Source: a virus (lineage: Duplodnaviria > Heunggongvirae > Uroviricota > Caudoviricetes). From it: 64,000 nt of DNA. The stretch lies in IMG/VR virus record IMGVR_UViG_2851938318_000001; one strand, 5' to 3'. The notes under the pieces were generated by a model, which saw only the letters and a list, made by a program, of their open reading frames with translations, did not search any database and was not told where the DNA came from. The position numbers and the translations under genes were made by a program. This document shows, one piece after another, positions 3,930-62,358 of this stretch. Numbering within the stretch: position 1 is the stretch's first letter; each line of letters opens with the position of its first letter.

Positions 3930-3971
3930 GTTCACAGATAAAACACTCTCCAGGAAACCCGGGGCGGTTCA

Positions 3972-4895: not shown

Positions 4896-4934
4896 GATAG
4901 GTAGATACTAACTTATATAAATTTTACTGTAAAC

Positions 4935-5210
4935 TCACTCAAAAGTGCTGATGCTTAAAATACGCTCAAGATGTTCGGCATCTTCATCACTGATTTGTTG
5001 AGTCTCTTCTACGTACCAACAGTTGCCGTTATGCCAACAAACACCATCATCATCAACCATCACTGAATCAGCGTCATGACCTGTATATTCAACGAGAATA
5101 CGCTGGATCAGCGCGTCAGTTTCTTCGTCGTTAAGGCCATCGGCTTTGACCATAAAAAGCGGAAACACGTCATAGACAGTGCTGGTAACGATTCGAACTA
5201 AAACTCTCAT
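4935..5210 (-). CDS. Hypothetical protein (91 aa)
   Basis: ORF in the same-strand gene series; no recognisable domain. Confidence 0.4.
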   Translation of the reverse strand: MRVLVRIVTSTVYDVFPLFMVKADGLNDEETDALIQRILVEYTGHDADSVMVDDDGVCWHNGNCWYVEETQQISDEDAEHLERILSISTFE

Positions 5211-5265
5211 GTGTTTTTCCTTTTGTGGTTAGTGTTTACTTATTTTGTTAGTTATGAATAGGCGA

Positions 5266-5691
5266 TCAATCTTCTTGTTTAGGGAAAAACTGTTCAATAA
5301 CTCTGTCAACGGCTGTGTCTATATGGAGTAGATGCCACACAACCATATCTTTGCTTCCCATGCCTTGTGTGAATATCACGTCATACTTACGCCATGCGCA
5401 GTGGAACCAATATGCTGAGTCATCAATTGGTAAATCCTCTCCCGCCTCTTTGAAGTATTTCAGCAGCATTGCCTGCTCTGCCGTTGGCGTTGGACCTATT
5501 TCCTGAGCGTACATACGGATGAATCGCTGCCAGTCTGTCTCGTCGGTGGTCGGATCTGGTGGATTCATTTCGGCGATAGCGTTTCGTAGCTGATGCGCCC
5601 AATCAGGTTCAGGAAAGCCTTTTGCTGCTTCATCATCAATAACATCCAGAGCCACGTTTGCGGCATCGTAGAGTTTCTTAATAGCTGTCAT
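5266..5691 (-). CDS. Hypothetical protein (141 aa)
   Basis: ORF with AAGGA RBS 8 nt upstream, preceded by the palindromic TTTTAAACAAATTGTTTTCT motif. Confidence 0.5.
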   Translation of the reverse strand: MTAIKKLYDAANVALDVIDDEAAKGFPEPDWAHQLRNAIAEMNPPDPTTDETDWQRFIRMYAQEIGPTPTAEQAMLLKYFKEAGEDLPIDDSAYWFHCAWRKYDVIFTQGMGSKDMVVWHLLHIDTAVDRVIEQFFPKQED

Positions 5692-5740
5692 GTTTTCTTA
5701 TCCTTTTAAACAAATTGTTTTCTTAATAAGATAATTGCGA

Positions 5741-5765
5741 TAAAAAAGGCGTCCAACTGGACGCC
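5741..5765 (-). terminator. Rho-independent terminator downstream of the SPFH gene
   Basis: ggcgtcc-aact-ggacgcc stem-loop followed by a T-run on the minus strand. Confidence 0.55.
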
Positions 5766-5782
5766 TGAACTTTTTAGGGGAG

Positions 5783-6613
5783 TTATTTCACTGTAATGAA
5801 AGGAGTGTTAGCCCCTTGAGTCATGTACTGCGGTAACTGGCCATTCCATTTATTGATGGCTTCCAATTCCATAACGTTCGGGTTTTGACGCAGAGCTTCA
5901 CCGCGCAGACGAATGGCGTCTGCTTCTGCTTGCGCACGAGCACGGATAGCATCAGCTTCACCATTAGCCTGTTCACGTAGCATATTCGCCTCAGCTTTAC
6001 GTTGTTCAACTTCCTGCTGACGTTGCAGAGTACGCTGGTTAGCCGTTACTTTGGCGTTAATAGATTCAATGACAGTTTTTGGGTAATCAGGCTTTCCAAC
6101 CCATGACAGGCTCAGTACCTCAATACCAACCGGAGACATCTCTTTCTGAATATCTTTCAGTGCGTTGTCCAGCAATTGTGCCTTACCACCGTCGATAAAT
6201 GAGTCAGTGGTCATACGGCTGGCCAAACGGTTTAGAGAGTCGGCAATTTTCTGACGCAGATCTGATTCGGTGATATCGTCTACGCCTTTGCGATAGGTCT
6301 GGAACACCGTCGTTACCTTGTCACGATTAACCAGATACGCAACGCCAATTTTGTGACCAATAGCAGTACCGTCACTCATCTGGAATGTGAACGGCTCGTC
6401 GTAGGTCTTCATTTGTTTGAAGGTCGGGAATACGTAAAGTTCGGTGTTAAGACCTGTCCATTGGCGACCAACGCCAACCACTTCACCAATCCCTTTGTCT
6501 TCACCTAATTTGTTTACTTTGATGCCAACGTATCCAGGCTCCACGCGATCGCAGCCAGTAAGACCCATTGTGCAAATAGCCGCCAGAGCAACTGCAAGTA
6601 AACCTTTCTTCAT
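5783..6613 (-). CDS. SPFH/band-7 (prohibitin/HflC-like) domain lipoprotein
   Basis: Lipobox LTGC after signal peptide; SPFH-like core and C-terminal Ala/Glu/Arg coiled-coil. Confidence 0.65.
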   Translation of the reverse strand: MKKGLLAVALAAICTMGLTGCDRVEPGYVGIKVNKLGEDKGIGEVVGVGRQWTGLNTELYVFPTFKQMKTYDEPFTFQMSDGTAIGHKIGVAYLVNRDKVTTVFQTYRKGVDDITESDLRQKIADSLNRLASRMTTDSFIDGGKAQLLDNALKDIQKEMSPVGIEVLSLSWVGKPDYPKTVIESINAKVTANQRTLQRQQEVEQRKAEANMLREQANGEADAIRARAQAEADAIRLRGEALRQNPNVMELEAINKWNGQLPQYMTQGANTPFITVK

Positions 6614-6616
6614 TAC

Positions 6617-6817
6617 TTATTTCCCCTTTGCTTTGATTAATGAGTTGATAAACTTACGACCAGCAATAAGACCGATTACAGGAGCACCAAAACCAACGAT
6701 AACTCCAAACATGACGGCTAAATCACTCTTGGTAGAAATCAGCGACGGAACCAGTAAACCGTAGATGAGAGCCACTGAAAGGCCTGTGGTTACTGCCAAT
6801 AGATAGATTTTGATCAT
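6617..6817 (-). CDS. Small membrane protein (66 aa) immediately upstream of the SPFH gene
   Basis: Two predicted hydrophobic helices; 3-bp gap to SPFH start. Confidence 0.5.
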   Translation of the reverse strand: MIKIYLLAVTTGLSVALIYGLLVPSLISTKSDLAVMFGVIVGFGAPVIGLIAGRKFINSLIKAKGK

Positions 6818-6879
6818 GTGTTTTCCTATGTGGTTGTTATGCGAAAATAATAAGTAAGTACTTATATATTTTCAAGAGA

Positions 6880-6907
6880 TAAAAAAGGCGTCCTGTGGAC
6901 GCCTTGT
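6880..6907 (-). terminator. Rho-independent terminator downstream of the recA-like C-terminal fragment
   Basis: aaggcgtcc-tgtg-ggacgcctt stem-loop followed by a T-run on the minus strand. Confidence 0.55.
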
Positions 6908-6909
6908 GT

Positions 6910-7620
6910 TTACTCTTCTACTGACTCGGTGGGATTGTCTTTTGATCTCCGGTCGTCGATTGCCTGTAAAGCCGCAATGATTTCAGCTAGTGGCTTCTCC
7001 CGATACATCTCGACGATCTGTGATTTGGTGTATTTCTTGTCACCAATTTCTACGCGCCCGCTGGCGTTCTTTGGCAGGTATCCTTCATCCAGCATGTACT
7101 CGACGAGCGATTCGATAACGTCGAGGCCACGAGTAGGATCGAAGTAGAATTTCCAGGTGCACTTGCCATACGGTGGTGCAACTTTGTTTTTGATGCACTC
7201 TGCGCCTACGTCCTGACCGATCTTCTCTTTACCATCCTTCATCACCGATGCACCAAGACGGATACGTACAGAAGCGTAGAACTTCGGTGAATCTCCACCT
7301 GGCGACGTAGTAGGGTCGCCAAACATTACACCGATTTTTGTGCGAACCTGATTCAAGAAGATGATGCAGGCGTTGTATTTGCGTGCCCACAAAGCCAGAG
7401 TAGGGAAGTTCGCACTCGTCGCACGAGCCAGTGCCGTATTGTCGTTCATGTTTAGCTGATCTTTGTCTTTGGCAGTGCCTTCAGCCATCTTTTCGAACTT
7501 CTCGGCTTTGGAGTTCGGAACCATAGACGCAAGAGAGTCAGCCACGATACAGATAGGTGCTGATTCGGGGATAAGCTCTTCATCACGAACCAATTTAAGT
7601 ATTGTGCCGATCAACTCTAC
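6910..7620 (-). pseudogene. RecA-like recombinase, C-terminal fragment (interrupted by IS629 copy 3)
   Basis: Translation VELIGTILK...CIVADSLASM...NACIIFLNQVRTKIGVMFGDPTTSPGG...KFYASVRIRL matches RecA core motifs; ORF runs to the IS boundary. Confidence 0.75.
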
Positions 7621-7674
7621 TGAACCGCCCCGGAAATCCTGGAGACTAAACTCCCTGAGAAAGAGGTAAACAGG

Positions 7675-8001
7675 ATGACTAAAAATACTCGTTTTTCCCC
7701 CGAAGTCCGTCAGCGGGCGATTCGTATGGTTCTGGAAAGTCAGGATGAATATGACTCACAGTGGGCGGCAATTTGTTCCATTGCCCCAAAGATTGGCTGT
7801 ACGCCGGAGACTCTGCGTGTCTGGGTTCGCCAGCATGAGCGGGATACCGGGGGCGGTGATGGTGGGCTCACCAGCGCTGAACGTCAGCGTCTGAAAGAGC
7901 TGGAACGTGAAAATCGTGAACTGCGCCGCAGTAACGATATCCTTCGCCAGGCTTCCGCTTATTTTGCGAAGGCGGAGTTCGACCGCCTCTGGAAAAAATG
8001 A
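7675..8001 (+). CDS. IS629 transposase OrfA
   Basis: Identical 108-aa translation. Confidence 0.85.
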
Positions 8002-8888
8002 TGCCACTGCTGGATAAGCTGCGTGAGCAGTACGGGGTCGGACCGGTATGCAGCGAACTGCATATTGCCCCGTCAACGTATTACCATTGTCAGCAACAGC
8101 GACATCATCCGGATAAACGCAGTGCCCGTGCGCAGCACGACGACTGGCTGAAGAGAGAGATACAGCGCGTATACGATGAAAATCATCAGGTGTACGGTGT
8201 GCGTAAAGTCTGGCGTCAGTTGTTACGGGAAGGAATCAGGGTGGCCAGATGTACAGTGGCACGTCTCATGGCGGTTATGGGACTTGCCGGTGTTCTCCGG
8301 GGTAAAAAGGTCCGTACGACCATCAGCCGGAAAGCCGTTGCCGCAGGCGACCGCGTAAACCGTCAGTTCGTGGCAGAACGACCTGACCAGCTGTGGGTGG
8401 CTGATTTTACTTACGTCAGCACATGGCAGGGCTTCGTCTATGTGGCGTTTATCATTGATGTGTTTGCCGGATACATCGTGGGGTGGCGGGTCTCATCGTC
8501 TATGGAAACGACATTCGTGCTGGATGCGCTGGAGCAGGCGTTGTGGGCCCGTCGTCCGTCTGGCACCATCCATCACAGCGATAAAGGCTCTCAGTATGTG
8601 TCACTGGCCTATACGGAGCGACTAAAAGAAGCCGGATTACTGGCATCAACAGGGAGTACAGGCGACTCGTATGACAACGCGATGGCTGAGAGCATCAATG
8701 GTCTTTACAAAGCGGAGGTAATACACCGTAAGAGCTGGAAAAACCGTGCAGAAGTGGAACTGGCCACACTAACGTGGGTGGACTGGTATAACAATCGACG
8801 ATTGCTGGGAAGGCTGGGCCATACTCCTCCGGCAGAAGCAGAAAAAGCTTATTATGCTTCCATCGGAAACGATGATCTGGCAGCCTGA
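7998..8888 (+). CDS. IS629 transposase OrfB
   Basis: Identical 296-aa translation. Confidence 0.85.
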
Positions 8889-8930
8889 GTTCACAGATAA
8901 AACACTCTCCAGGAAACCCGGGGCGGTTCA

Positions 8931-11900
8931 ACTGATGGTTCGAACTGACTTCTCACTTGGGGAGTCGGCTCTAAAAGCAGAAAACGCGGTGAAGATTGCC
9001 AGAGAAGCTGGCTACACCGCTGTAATTTCAGCAGATAGCATGAATATTGCGAGCGTTATTCCACTACAACGTGCCGCTGGTGACGACATGGCGGTTATTT
9101 GTGGTGTGAAACTAAACATTGTTGATGATCCCACATACGAGCACCGGGCTAAACTTGCTAAAGAATCTATGAGATGTATGGAATCATTAGAGCGGGGACG
9201 TAACTACTCGTTTACCGCTCTAATTAAAAATGAGCAAGGATATCGCGACATCTGCGAACTAATGACGGCGGCCAACACACGAGAACAGTTCTACTTTGTA
9301 CCGCGTCTCTCGCTCGAACAGTTGGTTTCTACATATGCCAAAGGCAACATCATCCTGCTTACTTCCGACATCGGTAGCGTGTTCCAACGCAACGATTTTG
9401 CAAAAATCATAAGCACACTGATTACAGCGGGTGGAAAAGACAACTTCTATAGTGTGGTTTATCCGCACCCTACCCCATTCTACGACCAGATTAACGTCCG
9501 GGCGATGAAAGTCGCCAGCGCATTGAAAATAGAGCCAGTGGCGTTCTATCCCGCTTATTACGAATCGATCGACGATGCAGACATTAAAGACATTGCGCAC
9601 ATGGTTACGAACAACATCAAAATCGACCAGCCGCATCGTCTGCGTATCCCCCACCAGCGAGATAACGCCGTCAATGGTCGCCGCCATCTCCTTGAGGCGC
9701 TTAAAGCCTTCTCCGTTCGCATGGATGTGCCGGTAACAGCTGCAATGGCCTCAACAACGCAGGATACCATTATCGATGCCTGCACATGGCGCTGGCATGA
9801 ATTGCCGCCAGCACTGCCAAAGATGGCAGACGACGAGCCTGCAACGCTTATGAAACTGGCTGTTGCAGGGCTGCGTAAACGTCTTACCACAAAAGAGTTT
9901 GGCTACACACCACCTGCTTCTGAGAACAGGGTTTATGTTGAGCGGCTAAAGTACGAAATGGACACGCTGACTCGCCTGGGATTTTGTGGTTACTTCCTGA
10001 TGGTACGCGATCTGATGAATCATAGTCGTGAAACTGGCATTCCCGTTGGGCCTGGTCGTGGTTCCTCTGCCGGTTCTCTGGTGGCGTGGTGCATAGGCAT
10101 AACCAACGTCGACCCAATCCGTCACGGTCTTCTGTTTGAGCGTTTCATCAACCCTGAGCGTCTCGACTTGCCGGATGCGGACTTGGACTTCAGCCAGGCA
10201 CGTCGCCATGAGGTGATCGAGTATCTGAATGAACGCTACGGCGAAGATTACGTTGCGGGTATTCCGAACTTCACCTACCTGGGCGCAGCCTCTGCACTAC
10301 GTGATACCGCTCGTATTTATGGTGTGGAGTCCGCAGATATGGCGGTATCAAAAGAACTGAAGAACGTCGAGGATGATAGCCTTCCATTGGAAGAGCTGCG
10401 CGAACAACTGGCAAGTCTCGACAAATACGCAACAAAATATCCTGATGCATTCAATGCAGCCTGCAAGTTACAAAGCCTTATGCGTGGCTTTGGTAGACAT
10501 GCGGCAGGGATGATCGTAGCAGGTGTTCCTCTGACAGAACGTACACCGGTTGAGCGCCGTGGTGACGCGCGTTGTATCGCATTTGACAAGCGTTACTGCG
10601 AGGCTATGGGCCTAATTAAGCTGGACGTGCTTGGCCTGGCAACTCTCGATTTGCTCGATAGTGCAAAACGCTACATAAAAGAGAACACAGGTGAAGATAT
10701 CAATCTTGATGCCATTTCTCTTGAAGATCGCAAGGTGCTGGATGGTTTTGCTGCTGGGTACACTCAAGGTGTTTTCCAGCTTGAATCAGGCCCAATGCGC
10801 AAGCTGCTTAAAGATTTAGGTGGTGGAATTGAGCCAATGAGCTTTAAAACGGTCGTCGCTACAACTGCGCTCTTCCGGCCGGGGCCAATTCAATCAGGCA
10901 TGTTGGATGACTATGTTTCTGTCGCCAAAGGCTTTATGACGCCGGAATCATTACACCCCGTTCTTGATGAACTTACCGCGGAAACAAATGGCGTGATTCT
11001 CTATCAGGAACAGACGATGAACGCGACTCGATTGCTTGCCGGCTTCACAATGGCTGAAGCTGACGCTGTGCGTTCCGCAATCGGTAAGAAGAACATGGAA
11101 AAAATGAAGAGCATGGGCGAGAAGTTTATCGTTCAGGCTCAAGCTGGCTGGATAGACGTTGAGCTGGAAGATGGCACTACACAGCGCATTCACCGTGCGG
11201 AACATTTTAAATGCGAAGACGGAACTCTGAAAACTGTCGAAGAGGCACTTGAGCACGGCGCAAAACTACCTATAAACGCAGTACGCGTTACAGCGTCACA
11301 TCCAGGGCTATCAGAGATGAAAGCGAAGGAGATCTGGACCGCATTTGAGAAAAACGGAGCCTATCAGTTCAATAAATCACACTCCGTTGCTTATTCTTTA
11401 ATCAGTTATCAGTCTATGTGGCTAAAGACGCACTACCCTGCTGAGTTCTTCGCAGCTGCGCTCACCATTCTGGGCGAGGATAAGCATCAGGGGCTGGTGA
11501 AGGATGCGCTGACCTATGGCATTCGCGTATTGCCACCAGACGTTAATGTGTCATCTAACCGAATTGAGATCCGCACACTCGAAGACGGCAGTCAGGCACT
11601 GTATGCGCCATTCTCTGCTGTGAAAGGCTGTTCTGAAAATGGTTGTCAGGCAATTATGCGTGCGCGTGAGAAAGTTGGTGGCAAATTCGAGTCAGTGGCA
11701 CAATTCGATGAAGCGGTCGAGAAGCGTGCATGTAACAGTCGTGTACGCGAGTCGCTTCATAAAGTAGGGGCTTTTGCGTCAATTGAGCCAGGCAGTCTGC
11801 CAGCAACTGATCCTGAACGACTGCGCGACCAGGCTGAGCTGATGGGCAATCTCATCATTGACGCTGTTAAAGCATCACGTCCGTTCGAAATGAATCCTAA

Positions 11901-12441
11901 GCGTTCTGCCGAAATCAACGTACTCATGACACGTATGGCGGCTGAAATGGGCTTGGGTGAGGAGTTGATACGCCCGACTATTGGTATTAAACCCAAAATC
12001 ATGATCATTCTGGACAATGCGAACGGCAATGACGCTCGTACCGGCTACTTCATGGAGAACGGATACGACGACTTTAAGGCAAAACTACTGACAGTTGGAG
12101 ATCTGCGCATGGGCGATCTTTATGTCACGGGTGTTTGTAAGAAGGTTAAGGACAAAGAGAAAGACTATACCAAAGACGAGATAGGCCAGTTCACAGACTT
12201 TATGCGGGAAGAAATTAATCTTGTACGACCAACCTACATTTTGACGTGTGGTAGTCGTTCAACCGCACTATTTAACAATAAGAGTAAACCATCAGATCTG
12301 ATTGGTCGTAAGGAGTACTTCCCAGAGCTTGATGCAACCGTCTTCTACGGATTTAACCCGAATATCCTGTACTTCCGACCGGAAGAAGGAGAGCGACTGG
12401 AGGCCATTCTGGCTGATATCGCGGAGACAATAAATAAGTAA
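8931..12441 (+). CDS. dnaE: DNA polymerase III alpha subunit (DnaE-like), separated from its native start codon by IS629
   Basis: PHP-like N-terminus and Pol III alpha signature GPGRGSSAGSLVAWCIGITNVDPIRHGLLFERFINPERLDLPDADLDF; ORF-track start at 8854 is IS-derived, first in-frame ATG after the IS at 8935. Confidence 0.8.
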
Positions 12442-12446
12442 TAAAG

Positions 12447-12470
12447 AAAACCCGCCTGTTGGCGGGTTTA
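12447..12470. terminator. Bidirectional rho-independent terminator
   Basis: cccgcc-tgtt-ggcggg stem with A-run before and T-run after. Confidence 0.5.
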
Positions 12471-12744
12471 TAAAGAATTATGGCGCTTGTTGAGGAAGTC
12501 ACTCCTCTTACGCACTTTGTTTTGCCATGCCGGCAGTTAGCTTCTGCCTTTGACTATTCATGCGGCAACCCCGCATTTCGCCACAATGGGCAATTCACTT
12601 TTATGGAATAAACTGGCCGTTGTGTCGATTTAATTAGCATGGCCTTACCATGCTAATTTATTCAACTTGTACAATCCTACAAATCTATCCACTCAGGCTT
12701 ACACCGTCTTCGTTATTGTAGAAATGAGGATCATCAGCGTTGAA

Positions 12745-12960
12745 TCAGCTTAGAGCAACGACATTTGCTGCTGCTGGGCCTTTAGCCCCATTCTCGATAG
12801 AGAATTCGACCTGCTGGCCTTCTTCCAAAGTGCGGAAATTATTACTCTGAATTGCCGAAAAATGTACAAAAACATCTTTACTGCCATCAGCAGGAGAAAT
12901 AAAGCCAAAGCCTTTATCAGAGTTAAACCATTTTACTAAACCAGTCATTTTATTAGACAT
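12745..12960 (-). CDS. Cold-shock protein, CspA family
   Basis: [23 protein letters not shown]...VFVHFSAIQ matches the CSD RNP motifs; ORF-track ORF extends upstream, true start taken at MSNKMTG. Confidence 0.8.
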
Positions 12961-13289
12961 AGATATTACCTTCTTAATTTTGTGAGCCACATAGTGCGGC
13001 GAGAATTTGATCTGTATAGATTGGGACTTACTTAGGCACTTAAGGAGGAGACTCACGAAGAAGGGAAATCAGAAGATAACACTGAACTGAGACTGCTTTA
13101 CTAAAACTGCTTACATAAGGTCTGTCTTGCAAACCAACGATGCTATTAACGCATACCCCTTCTTTTCATGCAACCTTTATTTTTCAAAGATAACTAATTT
13201 TTGTCACCATTGGTTTAGTAAACGTTAACGAACCAGACGATGCCAGACACCTTTACAGAGAACAGATGCCCGCCAATTGGCGGGCATCA

Positions 13290-13853
13290 TTATGCACATT
13301 TCGCAATATCTTTGCGGCGTTTAATCAGTTTCTCCGCAATTTGCTCTATTTCGTTGAAATCTTTCGAGACGCTGTTTCGAAGCGCCAGATTCCATTTACT
13401 CAAAGTTCGGGCATTTTGGACAATTTGATCGCCCTCTTTAAGTCGTCCGTTATTCATGAGCCATTCAGCCACATCAGCCCAATCCCAGAGAGGAGACTGG
13501 CCTTTTATGCGTTGTACAGGGCAAGGGAAGTCGCCGCTTCCGCGCTTACCGTCTTTGAGCAACGCCACTGCCTGGCGAGACAGGTCTGTCAGTTCCGCGA
13601 TATCGCTTAAGCCCACAAGAGCCGAGTCGACGGATTCAACAATTGCACCGATACCGGCTGATTCAATATTGTCGACCGCAGATGCGATAGCTGCATCAAG
13701 TGATTGTGCTTCGCGGTCAAATTCTACATAGACGGAGTTTCCATATGCGCAAATTAGCGCATCGTCACAGCCGTTTTGGTACAGCGCGTCTTCCAGTCCT
13801 TCCGTCTCATACGATACGCCTGAGAGCGTCAGAGTGAAGTTATAAAGCGCCAT
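13290..13853 (-). CDS. Putative DNA-binding protein with C-terminal HTH (possible HicB-like antitoxin)
   Basis: HTH-like segment LSDIAELTDLSRQAVALLKDG; second gene of an operon behind a palindromic operator/promoter. Confidence 0.4.
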   Translation of the reverse strand: MALYNFTLTLSGVSYETEGLEDALYQNGCDDALICAYGNSVYVEFDREAQSLDAAIASAVDNIESAGIGAIVESVDSALVGLSDIAELTDLSRQAVALLKDGKRGSGDFPCPVQRIKGQSPLWDWADVAEWLMNNGRLKEGDQIVQNARTLSKWNLALRNSVSKDFNEIEQIAEKLIKRRKDIAKCA

Positions 13854-13913
13854 AGTTTTCCTTTGAAGATAGTTGGACAGTTTCTGCAAAAGGCGGCTAA
13901 TGCCGCCTTGAAA

Positions 13914-14138
13914 TCATTTACAACGATCAACCATTCGTTTGATCTGTTTGGCATGGTTTTCGGGATTACCCGGAGTCGACCATACGCTCATTTGGTGAGT
14001 TTTGTGTTCACCTTCTGGATTACCGCATCGCAGTCTGCAAAAACAATGTGCAGCACCACCAGCTGCTACCCAGATCCAGCCTTTACTTAATGCATAGTCA
14101 ATGGCTGCTTGAATATGCTTATTCGGATGTTGCTTCAT
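13914..14138 (-). CDS. Small protein (74 aa), possible toxin partner
   Basis: First gene behind a sigma70-like promoter overlapped by a palindrome; GGAGG RBS; size and gene order fit HicA-first operons but sequence is not diagnostic. Confidence 0.35.
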   Translation of the reverse strand: MKQHPNKHIQAAIDYALSKGWIWVAAGGAAHCFCRLRCGNPEGEHKTHQMSVWSTPGNPENHAKQIKRMVDRCK

Positions 14139-14149
14139 TCGCCTCCGAT

Positions 14150-14190
14150 AATAGTATTCTATTCACAGTGTTGACATCTGTCAACGGCGA
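14150..14190 (-). promoter_or_regulatory. Sigma70-like promoter with overlapping palindromic operator
   Basis: Minus-strand TTGACA (14179-14184), 17-bp spacer, TAGAAT (14156-14161); palindrome gttgaca-tc-tgtcaac at 14170-14185. Confidence 0.45.
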
Positions 14191-14350
14191 CTGAATTTCA
14201 TCCGTTCATGCCACACCCCCATCCATCTCATGTATGTGACCTAAAGATGGTCAGCACAGCTTACCAAAATAAGACAACTAATTATCTTCGGTGATCTCAA
14301 TATTTTCCCCTGAACAAAGTTGACATGACGCCATAAACCCGTTCTCTGTT

Positions 14351-14359
14351 TGATATAAT
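14351..14359 (+). promoter_or_regulatory. Extended -10 promoter element (TGaTATAAT) upstream of the UvsY-like gene
   Basis: tgatataat about 34 bp upstream of the GTG start at 14393; no good -35. Confidence 0.3.
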
Positions 14360-14392
14360 TGATACAGATTTTATAAGTAGGAACCTATTAGA

Positions 14393-14824
14393 GTGAACAC
14401 TGATATTTTTTCTAAAATCATGGCCGATCTGGAGTTCGACCGCGACAACCTTGAGGAAGTATGGCGTAAACAGCCACGGCTTTTAATGGAGTATGGGTCA
14501 AAACTAGCGCAGGCAGATCGAGATGTCGCAGAGGCAAAACTTAACCTTGAAGCTGTTGAAGCAAAGCTATACGACACAGAGCGTAAGAACTTGAGTATGA
14601 ACGGCATTAAGTTCAACGAGTCTGTACTGGACGCTAAGGTTAAAACAAACCCACAGTATCTGTCTAAACGGCAGAAGTTGGATGAAGCACGGCACATCGC
14701 AGACATATACAAACATGCTGTCGCCGCCTTTTCGCATCGCCGAGACATGATCGTTCAGGCGTCAAAGATGGCCATCGTTGAATTAGAGCGATTAGGCTCT
14801 GAACGCTTTATTACTCCCCGTTGA
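14393..14824 (+). CDS. Putative recombination mediator (UvsY-like), hypothetical
   Basis: 143-aa helical protein starting at GTG; sits directly upstream of the gp32-like SSB and RecA-like genes as in T4-type recombination modules; weak similarity only. Confidence 0.4.
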   Translation: MNTDIFSKIMADLEFDRDNLEEVWRKQPRLLMEYGSKLAQADRDVAEAKLNLEAVEAKLYDTERKNLSMNGIKFNESVLDAKVKTNPQYLSKRQKLDEARHIADIYKHAVAAFSHRRDMIVQASKMAIVELERLGSERFITPR

Positions 14825-14941
14825 TTTTTGATAGATAATAAGTAAGTACTGATCTATCATTTAACAGCTCGAAAGAGCCACGAATGAACGAAAGCCCAAC
14901 GCGCATAGCGCCATCGGCCAAATCACAACAAGGAGAAACAC

Positions 14942-15982: not shown

Positions 15983-15998
15983 TCCCATTACGTGACCA

Positions 15999-16027
15999 GT
16001 AAGGCGTCTACGGACGCCTTACTTTTT
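15999..16027 (+). terminator. Rho-independent terminator after the SSB gene
   Basis: taaggcgtc-tacg-gacgcctta stem followed by cttttt. Confidence 0.6.
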
Positions 16028-16042
16028 GGAAGGAATGTACCG

Positions 16043-17253: not shown

Positions 17254-17255
17254 TC

Positions 17256-17622: not shown

Positions 17623-17664
17623 TGAACCGCCCCGGGTTTCCTGGAGAGTGTTTTATCTGTGAAC

Positions 17665-18555
17665 TCAGGCTGCCAGATCATCGTTTCCGATGGAAGCATA
17701 ATAAGCTTTTTCTGCTTCTGCCGGAGGAGTATGGCCCAGCCTTCCCAGCAATCGTCGATTGTTATACCAGTCCACCCACGTTAGTGTGGCCAGTTCCACT
17801 TCTGCACGGTTTTTCCAGCTCTTACGGTGTATTACCTCCGCTTTGTAAAGACCATTGATGCTCTCAGCCATCGCGTTGTCATACGAGTCGCCTGTACTCC
17901 CTGTTGATGCCAGTAATCCGGCTTCTTTTAGTCGCTCCGTATAGGCCAGTGACACATACTGAGAGCCTTTATCGCTGTGATGGATGGTGCCAGACGGACG
18001 ACGGGCCCACAACGCCTGCTCCAGCGCATCCAGCACGAATGTCGTTTCCATAGACGATGAGACCCGCCACCCCACGATGTATCCGGCAAACACATCAATG
18101 ATAAACGCCACATAGACGAAGCCCTGCCATGTGCTGACGTAAGTAAAATCAGCCACCCACAGCTGGTCAGGTCGTTCTGCCACGAACTGACGGTTTACGC
18201 GGTCGCCTGCGGCAACGGCTTTCCGGCTGATGGTCGTACGGACCTTTTTACCCCGGAGAACACCGGCAAGTCCCATAACCGCCATGAGACGTGCCACTGT
18301 ACATCTGGCCACCCTGATTCCTTCCCGTAACAACTGACGCCAGACTTTACGCACACCGTACACCTGATGATTTTCATCGTATACGCGCTGTATCTCTCTC
18401 TTCAGCCAGTCGTCGTGCTGCGCACGGGCACTGCGTTTATCCGGATGATGTCGCTGTTGCTGACAATGGTAATACGTTGACGGGGCAATATGCAGTTCGC
18501 TGCATACCGGTCCGACCCCGTACTGCTCACGCAGCTTATCCAGCAGTGGCATCAT
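17665..18555 (-). CDS. IS629 transposase OrfB
   Basis: Identical 296-aa translation. Confidence 0.85.
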
Positions 18556-18878
18556 TTTTTCCAGAGGCGGTCGAACTCCGCCTTCGCAAAATAAGCGGAA
18601 GCCTGGCGAAGGATATCGTTACTGCGGCGCAGTTCACGATTTTCACGTTCCAGCTCTTTCAGACGCTGACGTTCAGCGCTGGTGAGCCCACCATCACCGC
18701 CCCCGGTATCCCGCTCATGCTGGCGAACCCAGACACGCAGAGTCTCCGGCGTACAGCCAATCTTTGGGGCAATGGAACAAATTGCCGCCCACTGTGAGTC
18801 ATATTCATCCTGACTTTCCAGAACCATACGAATCGCCCGCTGACGGACTTCGGGGGAAAAACGAGTATTTTTAGTCAT
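18552..18878 (-). CDS. IS629 transposase OrfA
   Basis: Identical 108-aa translation. Confidence 0.85.
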
Positions 18879-18932
18879 CCTGTTTACCTCTTTCTCAGGG
18901 AGTTTAGTCTCCAGGATTTCCGGGGCGGTTCA

Positions 18933-39633: not shown

Positions 39634-39960
39634 ATGACTAAAAATACTCGTTTTTCCCCCGAAGTCCGTCAGCGGGCGATTCGTATGGTTCTGGAAAGTC
39701 AGGATGAATATGACTCACAGTGGGCGGCAATTTGTTCCATTGCCCCAAAGATTGGCTGTACGCCGGAGACTCTGCGTGTCTGGGTTCGCCAGCATGAGCG
39801 GGATACCGGGGGCGGTGATGGTGGGCTCACCAGCGCTGAACGTCAGCGTCTGAAAGAGCTGGAACGTGAAAATCGTGAACTGCGCCGCAGTAACGATATC
39901 CTTCGCCAGGCTTCCGCTTATTTTGCGAAGGCGGAGTTCGACCGCCTCTGGAAAAAATGA
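39634..39960 (+). CDS. IS629 transposase OrfA
   Basis: Identical 108-aa translation. Confidence 0.85.
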
Positions 39961-40847
39961 TGCCACTGCTGGATAAGCTGCGTGAGCAGTACGGGGTCGG
40001 ACCGGTATGCAGCGAACTGCATATTGCCCCGTCAACGTATTACCATTGTCAGCAACAGCGACATCATCCGGATAAACGCAGTGCCCGTGCGCAGCACGAC
40101 GACTGGCTGAAGAGAGAGATACAGCGCGTATACGATGAAAATCATCAGGTGTACGGTGTGCGTAAAGTCTGGCGTCAGTTGTTACGGGAAGGAATCAGGG
40201 TGGCCAGATGTACAGTGGCACGTCTCATGGCGGTTATGGGACTTGCCGGTGTTCTCCGGGGTAAAAAGGTCCGTACGACCATCAGCCGGAAAGCCGTTGC
40301 CGCAGGCGACCGCGTAAACCGTCAGTTCGTGGCAGAACGACCTGACCAGCTGTGGGTGGCTGATTTTACTTACGTCAGCACATGGCAGGGCTTCGTCTAT
40401 GTGGCGTTTATCATTGATGTGTTTGCCGGATACATCGTGGGGTGGCGGGTCTCATCGTCTATGGAAACGACATTCGTGCTGGATGCGCTGGAGCAGGCGT
40501 TGTGGGCCCGTCGTCCGTCTGGCACCATCCATCACAGCGATAAAGGCTCTCAGTATGTGTCACTGGCCTATACGGAGCGACTAAAAGAAGCCGGATTACT
40601 GGCATCAACAGGGAGTACAGGCGACTCGTATGACAACGCGATGGCTGAGAGCATCAATGGTCTTTACAAAGCGGAGGTAATACACCGTAAGAGCTGGAAA
40701 AACCGTGCAGAAGTGGAACTGGCCACACTAACGTGGGTGGACTGGTATAACAATCGACGATTGCTGGGAAGGCTGGGCCATACTCCTCCGGCAGAAGCAG
40801 AAAAAGCTTATTATGCTTCCATCGGAAACGATGATCTGGCAGCCTGA
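39957..40847 (+). CDS. IS629 transposase OrfB
   Basis: Identical 296-aa translation. Confidence 0.85.
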
Positions 40848-41359: not shown

Positions 41360-41366
41360 TTTACTC

Positions 41367-42308: not shown

Positions 42309-42309
42309 A

Positions 42310-43029: not shown

Positions 43030-43351
43030 TTTTTACGCCATACGCGGCTAACCCCAAAAGCAGTGCGGTAATAATGAACGACGTTATTTTAGAAACAATG
43101 CCGCCAAAGAACCCACTTGAGATGGAATCTAACCGGTTAAGGAGTTTGTCCAGATTGGAGTGTTGAATACTATGTTGCGCCGGGGTCATATCACCAAAGT
43201 AGGTTTTCAGCTGATCATTGACCTCCTGGCCAATTTCTTCACGTAGCTCTTTACCTAATTTGCCAACAACCTCCCGAGCAACGATCGCGGCAATACGCTC
43301 AACTTGCTCTGTTGTAACGCCCGCCATCTCGTTCGACATGTTTTCCTCCAT
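43016..43351 (-). CDS. Putative holin-like membrane protein
   Basis: 111 aa with C-terminal TM segment; overlaps the start of the next lysis gene. Confidence 0.3.
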   Translation of the reverse strand: MEENMSNEMAGVTTEQVERIAAIVAREVVGKLGKELREEIGQEVNDQLKTYFGDMTPAQHSIQHSNLDKLLNRLDSISSGFFGGIVSKITSFIITALLLGLAAYGVKSGLQ

Positions 43352-43541
43352 GAAAAGTCAAATCGGGATGGCGGATTTATATCACACTTCCCCTTTCAAT
43401 TATAGGTATATACTTACCTACCTATGCATATACCGTTTAACGGCTGTTCAAATTCGTATCTAGTAACTCACTAATATATCCCTATGATTGCGGCTGTGAG
43501 ATCGCATTTTAAACCTCACAGCCATATAAATAATGTCTAAA

Positions 43542-47567: not shown

Positions 47568-47660
47568 GTTGAATATGCTCCTTGATTTGGTGGGCTATCC
47601 TTGCCCACCATAAAGTAAGTACCTACTTATTTTTACCGATGTAAATATTTTTTTCTACTA

Positions 47661-59200: not shown

Positions 59201-60828
59201 CTGCCAGCACCAACTACCCCCATGATCCCTGCTCGCATCAGTTTGAACGCAACCATCGCGGCCACGACCTTACCGAGATTAATTACCAGCTCTTGGTTCT
59301 TTGCTAACCATTGAGCAAGCTGACGCAACCCATCGATTGCCGTCGTTAACCCCGAACCTAAAGAATTGGCAAACGAAATCCCTTCGGCGCTATTCATGAT
59401 TGAAGCCAGTTCTTTCATCCCCTTTGATAGAGAATCCAGATATCCGGCCTGACCAACTCGATCAGCAAATAACGTGAATGACGTCTGAAGTTGCGCCAGC
59501 GCACCTGTGTAGGTTTGCATCATGTCTTTCGCTGCGTTCTCGTTCTCCGCACGCAGACCAACAAACATCAGAGACAACGCCTGTTTTGCCTCAACCGTAC
59601 CGCTGGCAACAGCTTTAGTCAGTTCCCCCATAGTGATGCCTGCGGCATCTGCCATTGCCTGCATCGCGTTAGGAACGGCTTCACCTAATTGCTGACGTAG
59701 CTCTTCCATTGACACAACGCCCTTACCGGACATCTGCTGAACGGCCACAGCCGCACGTTTCAACAGCTCACTATCACCACCAAAACGAGCAACGGAGTCC
59801 ACCAGCGCCTTCAGAGAACCATCGGTTGGATCTAAGCCAGCAGAACGAAACTTCACGAAGGAATCTGTTAACGCCTGCATCGCGAACGGCGCATTTTGAG
59901 CCATGTCTACGATGTACTTCATATCATCAGCGGCAGCCTGGCCAGGGTTGGACTTCTCCTTATTCAACCCTCGAAGCATCACCCGCATACGTTCCATTTC
60001 GGCCGCAGCTTCAACAATAGGCTTCTGCCACCCAAACATGATGTCAGTAACCGTTCTGGCTGCATCTCCGATCTCGCCAAGCAGGAAAATGTTGCCACGA
60101 AGGCCAGAGAACATACCTCCTTCGTTATTTTTACCGCTGTGACCAGAAGCGCCGCTACGCTGCCCGCTACCACCATCGCCACTTCCAGATGTACGAACGC
60201 GTACCGGCTTGCTAATCAGTTGCTGACGTCCGATAACTTCGTCCATCTGCTCACGAACCTTTTTCAGTCCCTCGGCAGCCTGACTCGTTGTGACCCCCCA
60301 ATTACTGAGTCGCTTCGTCGTGGTATTAAGGCGCGTATTCATGCCACTCACGGACGCAGATGCTTCTTTGACCTCCGTTCCAAAGCGGCTTGCGCTTTTG
60401 CTTGCATAGGTCGCCCAATCAGAGAAATCATTTAGCTCTGATTGCACTTTACGTAATGACGCAGTGAGTTTATCTACTGAAGAAGTTGTCGTATCGACGC
60501 GCTCAATCAGGGCTTTAAGACCAGAATTGAGGCTGGTGATGTTGCCACGCATTTTACGCGTAGCATCTGAAGCAAGCTCAAAACCGGCAGCTACATCCTG
60601 TAGTTTATCTGCCGTAGAATCGAGCTTGCTTTCCAGAACGCCAATGATACGGGCGACCGAACCCAAAGAGCGTTCAAAGGTTTGGATTTTTTGAGCAGGC
60701 TTTGTTACCTGCTCACCAAATCGAGTAAGCAGTTTCCCCGCACGATCGATTGACGCTGTAAACTGTTTGTCTTCCAGCGACAGGATAAACTCTACGTTTT
60801 GTGACATTCCCTTGTCATCCTCTGCCAA
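56248..60828 (-). CDS. Tail tape measure protein
   Basis: 1526-aa protein with long coiled-coil/alpha-helical regions and hydrophobic segments; lambda H position. Confidence 0.8.
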   Translation of the reverse strand: MAEDDKGMSQNVEFILSLEDKQFTASIDRAGKLLTRFGEQVTKPAQKIQTFERSLGSVARIIGVLESKLDSTADKLQDVAAGFELASDATRKMRGNITSLNSGLKALIERVDTTTSSVDKLTASLRKVQSELNDFSDWATYASKSASRFGTEVKEASASVSGMNTRLNTTTKRLSNWGVTTSQAAEGLKKVREQMDEVIGRQQLISKPVRVRTSGSGDGGSGQRSGASGHSGKNNEGGMFSGLRGNIFLLGEIGDAARTVTDIMFGWQKPIVEAAAEMERMRVMLRGLNKEKSNPGQAAADDMKYIVDMAQNAPFAMQALTDSFVKFRSAGLDPTDGSLKALVDSVARFGGDSELLKRAAVAVQQMSGKGVVSMEELRQQLGEAVPNAMQAMADAAGITMGELTKAVASGTVEAKQALSLMFVGLRAENENAAKDMMQTYTGALAQLQTSFTLFADRVGQAGYLDSLSKGMKELASIMNSAEGISFANSLGSGLTTAIDGLRQLAQWLAKNQELVINLGKVVAAMVAFKLMRAGIMGVVGAGSQMVSTFATMATAIQTPFNLGATAVTRFNRAARMGLAPIPSLIFAIRGAITGLKGAFAGLTAFIAANPIGFVFTAAMTAVAGLITYMTMLRSETSKVVDEIRKIPEAMTAAKRAQMAEYKARLEQQITQKEQELKSGEKVVYGPGMAGTTVKINHDERKRIENELNELRKKRDETNETIARGDLAVAKRLAKETAESQIEKILEENRDFAATFVKARQEALEKIQKIKDDGSLSDDEKNKLLAPLRETVNKSYLEPAQKLVDSLSSRKNATEKQIATLNDQLEKAKKEGNTEQIQKLQGSIRGYQEHLEVVAQELTQAEFKRDNAAKSGNGLVSINGDVLGLGTTDKAAQKALAQYMRNQMDSATYQRTLPDGTPMMDFEGKPIIGPKQLKTQLNLQKASSASSLEKMSDEERAAAIAALTKAREQDAAAAEKAAQRSANASQRAAKKEQAAQQKLAAGYQKALDKADQLMGQMGESSKATVSFDQSLRDTTKSLTDLANAVPNEFITQEMIDKAKKRLEDLKNATPEYREMFNRRNVEQMISTWAPESDSIISAGYTPSREEKVADFEDTYNRNLKALIELRDKASDPKVVALYTKKINQLIAAGNTALIKETGTATQKLALEYENLAEQIESTWTDLFSGLTDVLTDFVINGKMSFSSLSQSILKDITNMVVKSQITLPLMNMLGMGTTAAGSSQSGNLLTGVASAVANQGVRMGNTVNGDKSVGEATKETSSSVTGLGQTTQQTTSAIGTATNAIGSWVSGLFDSTEAKDAETKAVKDSIFSMQNLSSVTGALSAAFAMLGANASGSGNKWLSFGATVASGLVSAWAGGGFDSVTSSSAKTTTSSVADGTKGIPAIPKFANGGIFGKDGVIPLRAYQKGGIANSPQLALFGEGSMNEAYVPLPDGRTIPVTLSTDGMSGGGNVLSPVSIEINVHSDGSTTESGDTESIWNNAAQRMKAIALETIAQEKRPGGSLNPNTQRN

Positions 60829-61201
60829 ATATTTGCATCAGTTGCTCTTTGGCGTCAGGGTCTGCCTTATCCTGGCTTGGATCGTAGACTTTATCTGTTA
60901 CGACTGGTCTTCCAATCCTGAGTTGCAAACCCTCCATGAACGCCTTCACAGCCTCGCCATCCGCCTGGGACGCACGAGCGACTTGTAAGTTGCGGACATC
61001 CTCTTCCGCACGCAGACGGTCTATATTGCGACTGAGCATCCAGAACATCGTGAGAGGGATGTTCAATAGCTCTAATGGCGACACAGCGTAGTGAGCAACT
61101 ACACGACTGAAATAGAATCCGAGATCTATTGAAACGGTCCTTGTCCCGGATTCATCGCGGGAAATTACTTTGCCCCTTCGCCAGCCGCTTTTTCGTTTTC
61201 T
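60815..61201 (-). CDS. Tail assembly chaperone T-frame segment (expected GT fusion by -1 frameshift)
   Basis: The -1 frame is open from 61201 through the G stop to 60815. Confidence 0.45.
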   Translation of the reverse strand, partial: RKRKSGWRRGKVISRDESGTRTVSIDLGFYFSRVVAHYAVSPLELLNIPLTMFWMLSRNIDRLRAEEDVRNLQVARASQADGEAVKAFMEGLQLRIGRPVVTDKVYDPSQDKADPDAKEQLMQIFGRG

Positions 61202-61482
61202 TCATCAATCACTTCCATAGCGAAGGTGAAGATCTGCTGGAGTTGCGGAACAGTCAGTTTTTCAAGAACTTCGTCAGGTACTGAAGGGATAACCTTACGA
61301 ACCAGATCTGCATAAGCTGTCACTTGCTCAACAGGAGACATGTTCATGAGATCTTTACCTTCCATCTGCTTGATGGAAACGAACAGACCTACCGTCATTT
61401 CAACGATGGGATATTCCTGACCGCCAAATTTGATGCTTTTCTTCGGAGGCAGAATGGAATCGAGATCGAGTAATTTGGTCAT
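61165..61482 (-). CDS. Tail assembly chaperone G-like
   Basis: 105-aa acidic protein between major tail and tape measure genes. Confidence 0.6.
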   Translation of the reverse strand: MTKLLDLDSILPPKKSIKFGGQEYPIVEMTVGLFVSIKQMEGKDLMNMSPVEQVTAYADLVRKVIPSVPDEVLEKLTVPQLQQIFTFAMEVIDEENEKAAGEGAK

Positions 61483-61537
61483 TGGTTAAAATCCTTTTAA
61501 AAGAGAGGCCCATCCTGAGCCTCTGCTTAATTACTGA

Positions 61538-62320
61538 TTAATCTGCGGGGTTAATCGTTACTGACTTAGTAGCCTTCTTAGAACCGCTATTGCTGGTGAA
61601 GGAGATGTTTGCAGTACCCTGCGCCACACCACGTACCAGACCCGTTTGATCTACCGTGGCCTTTTCCTGGTCTTCGGATTCCCAAACACCGGTTTTGTCT
61701 GCGGCATCAGCTGGAGTGATTTCGGCTGTCAGTTGCACAGTTTCTCCAGCTTTTACGGTTGGAGATTCCGGTGTGATCGACACAGTTTTTACCGGTTTGG
61801 GACCGCTCATTTTGCCCAGAACGCCTTCATCATCCGGGTATGCGCTGAACTGAACAGAGAACACACGAACATCATCAGACTGGTAGGTCATAGTGAAGTT
61901 GCCCGCGGTTGCCGCTTTCGGAATGGTCAACACATAGTCGGTGGTGTCCTGCGGAGTCAGAACCAGCTCCTTCGCCACATCGATCAGGTTGACGCCCTGT
62001 GCAGATGTGATCGTGACAGAGTTGTCATCTTCGCTCAGAGTAGAACCGGGCATCAGGTCAACCATGTTTTGGAGTACAGACTCAGCCAGAGGCGCGGTGA
62101 TGGTAATGTTGCGCCCCTGAACTAATTCGGAAATTACGGTCTGCCCCAACTGATCGACGGTGACTTTCAGCGTTTCAGTGGCTACTTCAACCTGAACACC
62201 ACCTTTGGTGTAACCCAAATCCACACCACCAAACGACACCTTACAGGCACCAAGTTTGATGTTTTTTACATGGGTATTAGACATTGATGGAAAACTCCTT
62301 TTTCCGTTAATTCTACGCAT
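61538..62320 (-). CDS. Major tail protein V-like with C-terminal Ig-like (Big_2) domain
   Basis: Position upstream of G/T; C-terminal Big_2-like segment TVKAGETVQLTAEITPADAADKTGVWESEDQEKATVDQTGLVRGVAQGTANISFT. Confidence 0.7.
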   Translation of the reverse strand: MRRINGKRSFPSMSNTHVKNIKLGACKVSFGGVDLGYTKGGVQVEVATETLKVTVDQLGQTVISELVQGRNITITAPLAESVLQNMVDLMPGSTLSEDDNSVTITSAQGVNLIDVAKELVLTPQDTTDYVLTIPKAATAGNFTMTYQSDDVRVFSVQFSAYPDDEGVLGKMSGPKPVKTVSITPESPTVKAGETVQLTAEITPADAADKTGVWESEDQEKATVDQTGLVRGVAQGTANISFTSNSGSKKATKSVTINPAD

Positions 62321-62358
62321 TCATTGCGCTAATGGTAAGTATATACTTACCTATTGAC

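Follow-up and report, generated by a model that had tools for sequence, protein, structure and literature searches.

TAAGTA-NN-TACTTA palindromes at predicted promoters of SSU5-type phage-plasmids as putative operators of an element-encoded repressor

In the plasmid prophage P1, one repressor, C1, is thought to hold many lytic promoters through operators that are dispersed over ~100 kb. These operators are asymmetric 17-mers, and the tail, tail fiber and lysis genes of P1 depend on the activator Lpa. In lambdoid phages, the operators are clustered at two loci and the late genes are controlled via antitermination, whereas the LexA/SOS box is one palindrome that occurs at variable positions in many otherwise unrelated sigma-70 promoters. 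The T4 MotA box and the palindrome of the P1 Lpa late promoters are phage sequences that take the place of the -35 element at one fixed position. A 2024 review of phage-plasmid regulation describes mechanisms for P1, N15, VP882 and GIL01, and none for the SSU5 family (PMC11652158). Here, we analyzed a 64,000-nucleotide stretch of DNA (IMG/VR record IMGVR_UViG_2851938318_000001; hereafter the window), which sequence comparison assigned to an SSU5/pSLy3-type (SSU5-supercommunity) phage-plasmid of Escherichia coli, and in which a first-pass annotation had pointed out a recurrent AT-rich palindrome upstream of many genes. Phage-plasmids of the SSU5/pSLy3/pKpn/pMT1 type are frequently found in E. 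coli, Salmonella (pHCM2), Klebsiella and Yersinia pestis (pMT1/pFra), and they carry resistance and virulence genes. In the searchable literature, we came across no account of this motif or of how lysogeny is controlled in the SSU5 family.

The window was searched for the 14-mer TAAGTANNTACTTA (TAAGTA-NN-TACTTA) and, separately, for a 16-mer version with up to 3 mismatches. The 14-mer gave 10 matches with at most 1 mismatch versus 0.08 expected (the largest number in a shuffle was 2), and the 16-mer gave 16 matches versus 0.25 expected. After merging of overlapping registers, the window contained 5, 10 and 16 sites at up to 0, 1 and 2 mismatches, respectively, compared to 3.4 ± 1.7 in mononucleotide shuffles at up to 2 mismatches, which confirmed that the palindrome is recurrent. 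All 14 positions that had been listed before corresponded to matches with at most 2 mismatches (Table 1). Two further matches were found, one at 14374 upstream of UvsY, and one at 29102 that lies within a coding sequence and is probably a chance match. The sites do precede start codons, as had been noted, although the spread is wider than the 20-70 bp originally given: the distances to the next start codon, in gene orientation, were 2, 18, 33, 32, 89, 63, 73/86, 46, 14, 135, 63, 48, 26 and 51 nt, thus 2-135 and mostly 14-89 nt, and site 28722 is located ~750 nt ahead of the tRNA cluster. The distribution over coding and intergenic DNA was determined in the annotated close relative Cyrano, where 24 of the 28 sites are fully intergenic, while intergenic DNA makes up 13% of the genome (binomial p = 7e-18) and shuffled intergenic DNA contained 1.45 sites. 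An equal frequency in coding DNA, which the first-pass annotation had named as evidence against its proposal, was thus not observed.

Alignment of 26 sites from SSU5 and the window showed that the motif is a two-fold palindrome, rTAAGTA-NN-TACTTAy, in which the information content of both arms matches position by position. The inner G-T-A / T-A-C positions are best conserved, and beyond the arms there are only weak purine/pyrimidine-rich flanks. Since the motif is a palindrome, assigning its core to the coding strand, as was done earlier, is meaningless, and the asymmetry of the flanks was not robust either: in a leave-one-out test it was significant in SSU5 only, because of tie-breaking among overlapping registers. 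Many sites are in fact 18-bp palindromes with a 4-bp period (e.g. TAAG-TAAG-TA-CTTA-CTTA and TAGG-TAAG-TG-CTTA-CCTA), consisting of two 14-bp registers that are 4 bp apart. Both the symmetry and the length of the 6-2-6 form suit a dimer. A sigma-70 -10 element within the core was rejected, as none of the hexamers contained in TAAGTAnnTACTTA shows the A(-11)/T(-7) signature, with A as the second and T as the sixth base, and in a comparison by eye none of the T4-late (TATAAATA), sigma-28 (GCCGATAA), Fur, DnaA, IHF and LexA boxes fitted the conserved positions.

The motif is shared by related elements from other hosts. There are ~28-30 copies in the Salmonella phage SSU5, 27-28 in Cyrano and 26 in 100 kb of the Klebsiella phage pJN2-26, and the motif was likewise found in a Moellerella plasmid and Y. 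pestis pMT1; the sites of these elements are at orthologous positions. In three-way alignments of 20 orthologous upstream regions from the E. coli, Salmonella and Klebsiella elements, the palindrome forms a conserved island in diverged intergenic DNA, and the same was seen in an alignment of 24 distinct CobS upstream sequences. The genes that carry a site are involved in replication, recombination and nucleotide metabolism, or encode portal, tail, tail fiber and holin proteins, and no sites were found at repA, parA, integrase or toxin-antitoxin genes in the window and Cyrano. When the motif map was compared with the published list of genes that are expressed in the Cyrano lysogen (PMC9928086), these genes (CYRAN_45, toxin-antitoxin genes, CYRAN_29 and 30 of the parA operon, and others) were found mostly in units without a site, and the leading genes of the site-bearing units were absent from the list.

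Promoters were predicted by comparison with the sigma-70 consensus in what is AT-rich DNA, and the transcription starts used below are likewise predicted. The best sigma-70-like score within ±45 nt of a site was higher in gene orientation than in reverse in Cyrano (21 versus 2 sites, p = 5e-4), SSU5 (21 versus 5, p = 1e-3) and the Klebsiella element (18 versus 4, p = 3e-4), and the promoter scores flanking sites were 8.7-8.9 versus 7.1 in random genomic windows. The palindrome adds equally to both orientations, thus it is the flanking DNA that holds gene-directed promoters. Simply counting -10-like hexamers before and after the sites gave no difference between forward and reverse, because the extended palindrome has TATCAT-like hexamers on both sides, and this test was superseded by the full -35/-10 scoring. 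An independent scan tool also placed the palindrome in the promoter spacer at 6875-6847, 14832-14860, 55864-55836 and 4933-4905. The earlier remark that the motif is unlike host sigma-70 promoters therefore holds for the palindrome itself, which is not a promoter, but not for its surroundings, since it sits within recognizable sigma-70-type promoters such as TTGAAA-17-TATTAT at 6875-6847. Strict sigma-70 matches were depleted in the window (20 versus 35.9 ± 6.2, and 11 versus 24.7 ± 4.9).

The register between palindrome and promoter differed from gene to gene. In the alignments, the -10 of CobS, SbcD, CYRAN_34 and Ead begins 13-14 nt past the 14-mer and has a TGn extension and no -35, whereas at NrdA (TTGATA-17-TAACAT), tail L (TAGATA-17-TATTAT) and CYRAN_107 (TTGTAA-17-TAGAAT) the -10 begins 5-6 nt past the site and a -35-like hexamer overlaps the left arm. 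At the membrane/SPFH operon (TTGAAA-17-TATCAT in the alignment) the -10 overlaps the final two bases of the 14-mer, and at UvsY and ThyX the palindrome lies over or downstream of the -10. Relative to the predicted starts, the palindrome centers ranged from -43.5 to +17.5, with clusters near -32.5, -24.5/-21.5, -17.5 and -0.5, and all were located inside the RNA polymerase footprint of the predicted promoters. A single activator-type position was not found, as only ~5 sites share -32.5 and others are at -24.5, -17.5, -0.5 and +14.5, nor was there a fixed directional consensus, the offsets to -10-like hexamers and to start codons being variable. A position that is always within the polymerase footprint, in a register that is not fixed, argues for a repressor operator rather than a promoter element or activator site. 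The first-pass annotation had offered two explanations, an element-specific promoter or a binding site for an element-encoded regulator. The former found no support, given the non-directional core, the missing -10 pattern and the variation in offset of more than 50 bp; in addition, neither the annotations of pRM9131-1, Cyrano, SSU5 and pJN2-26 nor Pfam and PHROGs scans of 30 conserved hypothetical proteins revealed an RNA polymerase or sigma factor, although very divergent factors could escape such scans. The latter is supported by the equal arms, the conserved island across at least four host genera, and the overlap with gene-oriented sigma-70-like promoters.

Taken together, the palindrome is probably, though far from certainly, the operator of a repressor encoded by the phage-plasmid itself, most likely the XRE protein encoded at 23125-23511. 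In such a model, the core rTAAGTA-NN-TACTTAy, often doubled in two registers 4 bp apart, would serve as operator, with ~15 operators in the window and ~27-30 per complete element, situated within ~-43 to +17 of host-type sigma-70 promoters that would head the lytic units for replication, recombination, nucleotide metabolism, tail, tail fiber and lysis. A dimeric helix-turn-helix (HTH) protein bound to these operators would occlude RNA polymerase, early and late genes would be kept silent during replication in the plasmid state, and loss or inactivation of the repressor would release all units together. The operator set and a named candidate repressor provide a testable model of plasmid-state maintenance and release, which also predicts the membership of the lytic regulon. 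The 14-mer could be used as a marker of transcription units, and the XRE gene as a handle for forced induction or curing.

The proposed binder is a putative Cro/CI-type (XRE) HTH protein of 128 aa. Its homologue CYRAN_45 has been treated as a putative master repressor and is expressed in the LF82 lysogen (PMC9928086). The gene order Int, XRE and then, divergently, hyp-CobT-CobS-DnaE is kept in nearly all of 80 related loci, and also in pMT1. By synteny, the divergent 70-aa CYRAN_46-like open reading frame (ORF) occupies the place expected of a Cro-like gene; Pfam and PHROGs scans assigned no family to it. In our search, XRE homologues (NCBI name XRE family) were found only on ~100-116 kb Enterobacterales contigs, i.e. 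only in this plasmid family, with at least 55% identity, so that more distant homologues for a covariation test were not obtained from it. The HTH stretch GYKNxNNLSLIKSGKIPLP is invariant over XRE proteins of 55-100% identity. The protein matched phrog_8 'transcriptional regulator' in PHROGs (1.3e-11), and its AlphaFold model (predicted local distance difference test score, pLDDT, 74.5) gave only Cro/CI-type structural matches, with a Foldseek probability of 1.0 and weak E values (at least 0.012). These matches were Stl, C.BclI, C.AhdI (root mean square deviation 1.6 Å over 62 columns), DNA-bound HigA and the DNA-binding domain of the 434 repressor. A GGTAAG-NN-CTTACC palindrome is located 2 nt past the -10 of the predicted XRE promoter (at ~+1), and is conserved in 12 lineages; it was also found in pMT1 and Klebsiella. 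This weaker, conserved copy on its own promoter suggests that the XRE gene is negatively autoregulated. In phage SSU5, Int, XRE and hyp46 are missing altogether, but the ~28-30 sites are retained and the phage grows lytically. If XRE is the binder, lytic growth thus does not require it, as expected of a repressor.

Two other proteins were considered as binder and rejected. The FljA-like CYRAN_114 is a member of an RNA-binding family, its gene carries no site, and it lacks a solved homologue. CYRAN_114 lies outside the window, at 780-1301 of the compared Cyrano stretch. It is a full-length homologue of FljA, the phase-1 flagellin repressor (PF03614, E = 1e-80), with a weak Hfq-like match, and it is 75-78% conserved in SSU5 and the Klebsiella elements. 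This gene is more likely a host-directed accessory that may silence host flagellin. The HicB-annotated 187-aa HTH protein, which likewise lacks a solved homologue, was not found in the 100 kb searched of the 110-kb Klebsiella element.

Among the described systems, P1 C1 is the closest functional parallel, as both are plasmid prophages in which scattered operators (putative ones in the SSU5 family) overlap core promoters at varying positions. Unlike in P1, the sites described here are two-fold palindromes, they also precede tail, tail fiber and lysis genes, and the candidate binder is a small, putatively Cro/CI-type HTH protein and probably not a member of the C1 family. The predicted fold of the candidate binder matches that of the lambdoid CI/Cro proteins (434 cI, P22 c2) and the restriction-modification C-proteins, with which the locus also shares 14-18 bp palindromes and a ~10 bp center spacing of the TAAG/CTTA tetramers, and the divergent arrangement of repressor and small ORF is lambdoid as well. 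However, ~30 single putative operators are spread across every lytic unit, and the 128-aa protein lacks an S24 peptidase domain. The variable positioning in unrelated promoters resembles that of the LexA/SOS box, but the sequence is different, it is confined to one mobile element, and its binder is probably element-encoded. The CobS, SbcD, CYRAN_34 and Ead subset is reminiscent of T4 MotA and P1 Lpa promoters in having a phage sequence in place of the -35; taken over all sites, the offset spans more than 50 bp, and homologues of MotA/AsiA or Lpa were not detected.

Two distant genomes were compared. The Acinetobacter baumannii AB-group phage-plasmid pWT37662 has the same gene order, with a CobS that is only 41% identical. 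Its syntenic XRE homologue shares 38% identity, differs in the recognition helix and exceeds the HTH_3 cut-off. This element has its own repeated palindrome, AGTAAGCGCTTACT, with 11 sites at up to 1 mismatch versus 0.18 expected. The sites are mostly intergenic and are found upstream of primase, CobT, CobS and SbcD, several of them directly abutting TATAAT. The AGTAAGCGCTTACT and TAAGTA-NN-TACTTA types are reciprocally exclusive between the two lineages, as co-evolution of repressor and operator predicts; since every backbone gene co-varies as well, this counts as support but does not settle the matter. With operator and repressor both changed between the enterobacterial and Acinetobacter groups, the two lineages represent a small natural experiment in co-evolution. 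In the part of pWT37662 that was compared (1572-38834), AGTAAGCGCTTACT often takes the form aTTATT-palindrome-ATAAT. The Acinetobacter relative also has a 221-aa sigma-70-like ORF, with a weak region-2 match, between CobS and DnaE (21264-21929 of the compared stretch), of which no homologue was found in the SSU5 group. The second genome is an unrelated environmental phage contig of ~62 kb, IMGVR_UViG_3300030106_001081, whose terminase is ~46% identical to those of HTVC023P/027P-type pelagiphages. It contains at least 10 near-identical copies of aaCCGA-TAAGTAATTACTTA-TCAaaa, mostly 8-12 nt ahead of early-gene ribosome-binding sites, and two copies are followed by a GC hairpin. The copies were observed at 8399-10468 and 1076-6035 of two separate pieces of this contig, and at 3592-4445 of a further piece. 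No protein common to Cyrano and this phage was detected in the 26 kb of contig compared, and Pfam and PHROGs searches with its ORFs were uninformative.

Several observations weigh against a repressor operator read by XRE. In the environmental phage, the identical palindrome of 18 bp is part of a promoter-like cassette, near which no sigma-70 hexamers are present. The flanks of the palindrome itself (TTGATA..., ...TATCAT) feed into some of the predicted promoters, and some late-region sites (portal, tail fiber) are without a convincing promoter. Direct repression of late genes by a lysogeny repressor would be unusual. As to the protein, its Pfam HTH_19 match (E = 7.8e-4, 19.7 bits) is under the curated cut-off of 30.2 bits, the palindrome on its promoter matches the 14-mer at only 9 of the 12 specified positions (3 mismatches) and can be read in another register, and synteny alone cannot single out XRE, because every backbone gene co-occurs with the motif. 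Finally, at five promoters (CobS, SbcD, CYRAN_34, Ead and the tRNA unit) an extended -10 without -35 is combined with a palindrome near -32.5, which fits sigma appropriation or activation as well.

This last arrangement is what positive control would look like, with the palindrome as the site of an element-encoded activator or as the recognition element of a phage-redirected host RNA polymerase, comparable to the T4 MotA box at -30 or the P1 Lpa late-promoter palindrome; all lytic units would be turned on in this way. We regard this as possible, though unlikely. The fixed geometry of the five promoters (palindrome, 13-14 nt, TGn-extended -10, no -35) is in line with it, as are the depletion of strict sigma-70 matches in the window, the 10 or more near-identical palindromes before ribosome-binding sites in the environmental phage without sigma-70 hexamers, and the sigma-70-like ORF in Acinetobacter relatives. 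On the other hand, the offset to the best -10 hexamers runs from ~-43 to +17, which one activation geometry does not explain, several promoters that carry a site are good sigma-70 promoters as they stand (e.g. TTGAAA-17-TATTAT and TTGATA-17-TAACAT), the core is symmetric and non-directional, and no sigma factor, RNA polymerase or recognizable activator was present among the 30 conserved hypothetical proteins scanned. The environmental phage also raises the idea that the 18-bp palindrome GATAAGTAnnTACTTATC, by which 10 or more of its early genes are preceded, is not an operator but the core of a portable promoter cassette, which would redirect host RNA polymerase via an unrecognized small factor or a widespread host factor; this seems to us quite unlikely, and that the SSU5-family sites would be the same cassette in a temperate background is equally doubtful.

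A host DNA-binding protein that reads the palindrome, through which host physiology would gate the lytic genes, is very unlikely in our view. The NarL/FixJ-family protein RcsB may serve as an example, since its box, TAAGAATATTCTTA, has the same TAAG-6-CTTA outline. The occurrence of the same core in elements from Escherichia, Salmonella, Klebsiella, Moellerella and Yersinia would agree with a host factor, and so would its presence in the environmental phage, with which no protein is shared in the 26 kb compared, but the inner G-T-A / T-A-C positions are unlike the RcsB box, we know of no host regulon with this box, which counts against a host protein, and the different palindrome in Acinetobacter, alongside a diverged syntenic repressor, fits an element-encoded binder better. 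At the RNA level, the repeats could form hairpins or protein-binding sites in 5' leaders and intercistronic regions, for instance a translational operator for an FljA-like RNA-binding protein. Many sites are indeed close to a start codon (2-33 nt) and located in long operons between the genes, and the family encodes a full-length FljA-like protein. This explanation is nevertheless barely plausible, as folding is weak (mean -2.3 kcal/mol, with no structure in 3 of 13 sites), the frequent T12-to-C changes would give uncompensated A-C mismatches in the sense strand, the arm-by-arm conservation is what a DNA-binding dimer predicts, and the FljA-like gene carries no site. Moreover, at about half of the sites the predicted start is downstream of the palindrome, which is therefore outside that transcript. 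The least plausible possibility is that the repeats are mainly recombination or module-boundary sequences for gene shuffling, like the T4-type promoter-stem-loop cassettes, with regulation being secondary. Sites flank variable modules, several are followed by a GC hairpin, and accessory genes differ between relatives exactly between sites, e.g. downstream of the ligase operon, but the core is conserved while the spacer is degenerate, longer identical tracts as needed for homologous recombination are missing, and both the two-fold symmetry and the association with gene-oriented promoters would be left unexplained.

The coordinates of the palindromes, of the XRE locus and of the insertion elements in the window are listed in Table 1.

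Table 1. Palindromic sites, XRE locus and IS629/IS1203 copies in the window. The strand is that of the downstream gene or of the feature itself.
Feature	Coordinates	Strand	Context
Palindrome, 2 mismatches	4898..4911	-	2 nt upstream of CYRAN_60-like gene; overlaps tool-called promoters 4933-4905 and 4921-4894
Palindrome, 2 mismatches	5229..5242	-	18 nt upstream of CYRAN_59-like gene
Perfect site	6851..6864	-	In spacer of TTGAAA-17-TATTAT (6875-6847); heads membrane/SPFH operon, after terminator 6905-6885
Weak site, 2 mismatches	14374..14387	+	32 nt upstream of UvsY; downstream of conserved extended -10 TGATATAAT
Site, 1 mismatch	14839..14852	+	In spacer of TAGATA-17-TATCAT (14832-14860); upstream of gp32-like SSB gene
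Perfect site	20422..20435	-	63 nt upstream of CobS; conserved extended -10 TGnTATATT begins 13 nt past site
Two overlapping weak registers (26222 and 26226), 2 mismatches each	26222..26239	-/+	Divergent region, glutaredoxin (-) and 302-aa ORF (+)
Perfect site	28722..28735	-	After ligase operon, head of tRNA-cluster unit
Site, 1 mismatch	32081..32094	-	46 nt upstream of CYRAN_34-like gene; conserved TGTAAGAAT 12-13 nt past site
Site, 1 mismatch	37342..37355	-	14 nt upstream of CYRAN_31-like gene, head of DnaB/primase block
Degenerate site, 2 mismatches	37463..37476		Center of large inverted repeat 37445-37499
Site, 1 mismatch	43403..43416	-	63 nt upstream of holin gene
Perfect site	47616..47629	-	48 nt upstream of tail fiber gene; GC hairpin next
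Site, 1 mismatch	55847..55860	-	In spacer of TGGATA-17-TATCAT (55864-55836); upstream of tail protein L; hairpin 55832-55810 next
Perfect site	62336..62349	-	51 nt upstream of Ig-domain major tail gene
Candidate binder, XRE protein gene	23125..23511	+	128 aa, CYRAN_45 homologue
Predicted XRE-gene promoter, TTTACA-16-TAATAT	23051..23078	+	Conserved block
Conserved degenerate palindrome TCGGTAAGCACTTACCAG, putative autoregulatory operator	23078..23095		Just after -10 of XRE promoter
70-aa ORF, CYRAN_46-like	22661..22873	-	Divergent from XRE gene; first gene of CobT-CobS-DnaE unit
IS629/IS1203	1156-2369		Interrupts backbone
IS629/IS1203	2716-3929		Interrupts backbone
IS629/IS1203	7675-8888		Interrupts backbone
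IS629/IS1203	17665-18878		Interrupts backbone
IS629/IS1203	39634-40847		Interrupts backbone
IS629/IS1203	51573-52786		Interrupts backbone

The genes in the window are mostly on the minus strand. Region 19000-39500 matches plasmid pRM9131-1 (NZ_CP028430.1) with 100% and phage Cyrano of E. coli LF82 with 97-98% identity, and the order of segments in the window is unlike that in pRM9131-1. The six IS629/IS1203 copies split tail gene J, a 5'-3' exonuclease gene and RecA-like/AAA ATPase genes. The element in the window is probably defective as a phage and rearranged through recombination between these copies. The tRNA cluster, at ~27400-27970, consists of four genes (Asn, Tyr, Thr and Ser) with ~93% identity to those of the phage-plasmids P7 and D6, and ~78% identity to those of N4-like phages. 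Site 6851, at the head of the membrane/SPFH operon, has orthologous counterparts in SSU5, Cyrano and pMT1. The best sigma-70 match of the window (TTGACA-17-TAGAAT, 11/12) is located at 14156-14184 on the minus strand, has no palindrome, and drives a HicA-like/HTH gene pair that is expressed in the Cyrano lysogen. In the Y. pestis pMT1-type plasmid (9064-38298 of the compared stretch), the integrase-XRE-small ORF-CobT-CobS-DnaE module is kept, orthologous promoters carry the motif, the palindrome of the XRE promoter is retained, and the caf1 (F1 capsule) operon directly adjoins the integrase.

The inverted repeat at 37445-37499, between the hyp31/DnaB block and the GIY-YIG gene, has 17-nt arms that are 94% complementary (CCTGCTTCCGTATATAT ... 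ATATATACAGAAGCAGG). A second copy of this type is found upstream of CYRAN_80 in Cyrano (~78.1 kb), and in SSU5 (~78.3 kb) and Klebsiella pJN2-26 (~15.3 kb), and the repeat could be a bidirectional terminator, an origin or a recombination site. GC-rich hairpins are located 5-15 nt downstream of several palindromes, in the window at 55810-55832 and ~47575-47600, and in Cyrano in the upstream regions of NrdA, Ig6 and the major tail gene. Some of these are followed by a T-run and others are not, and the predicted start is at the base of the hairpin. These hairpins may be 5' stabilizers, attenuators or terminators of the upstream unit, and the layout of site and hairpin is reminiscent of the promoter-stem-loop cassettes of T4-type phages. 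In the stretch that separates the start of the holin gene from site 43403 (~43345-43400), a block, TGTGATATAAATCCGCCATCC, is conserved in the E. coli, Salmonella and Klebsiella elements, and contains the sequence TATAAAT, which resembles the T4 late promoter box.

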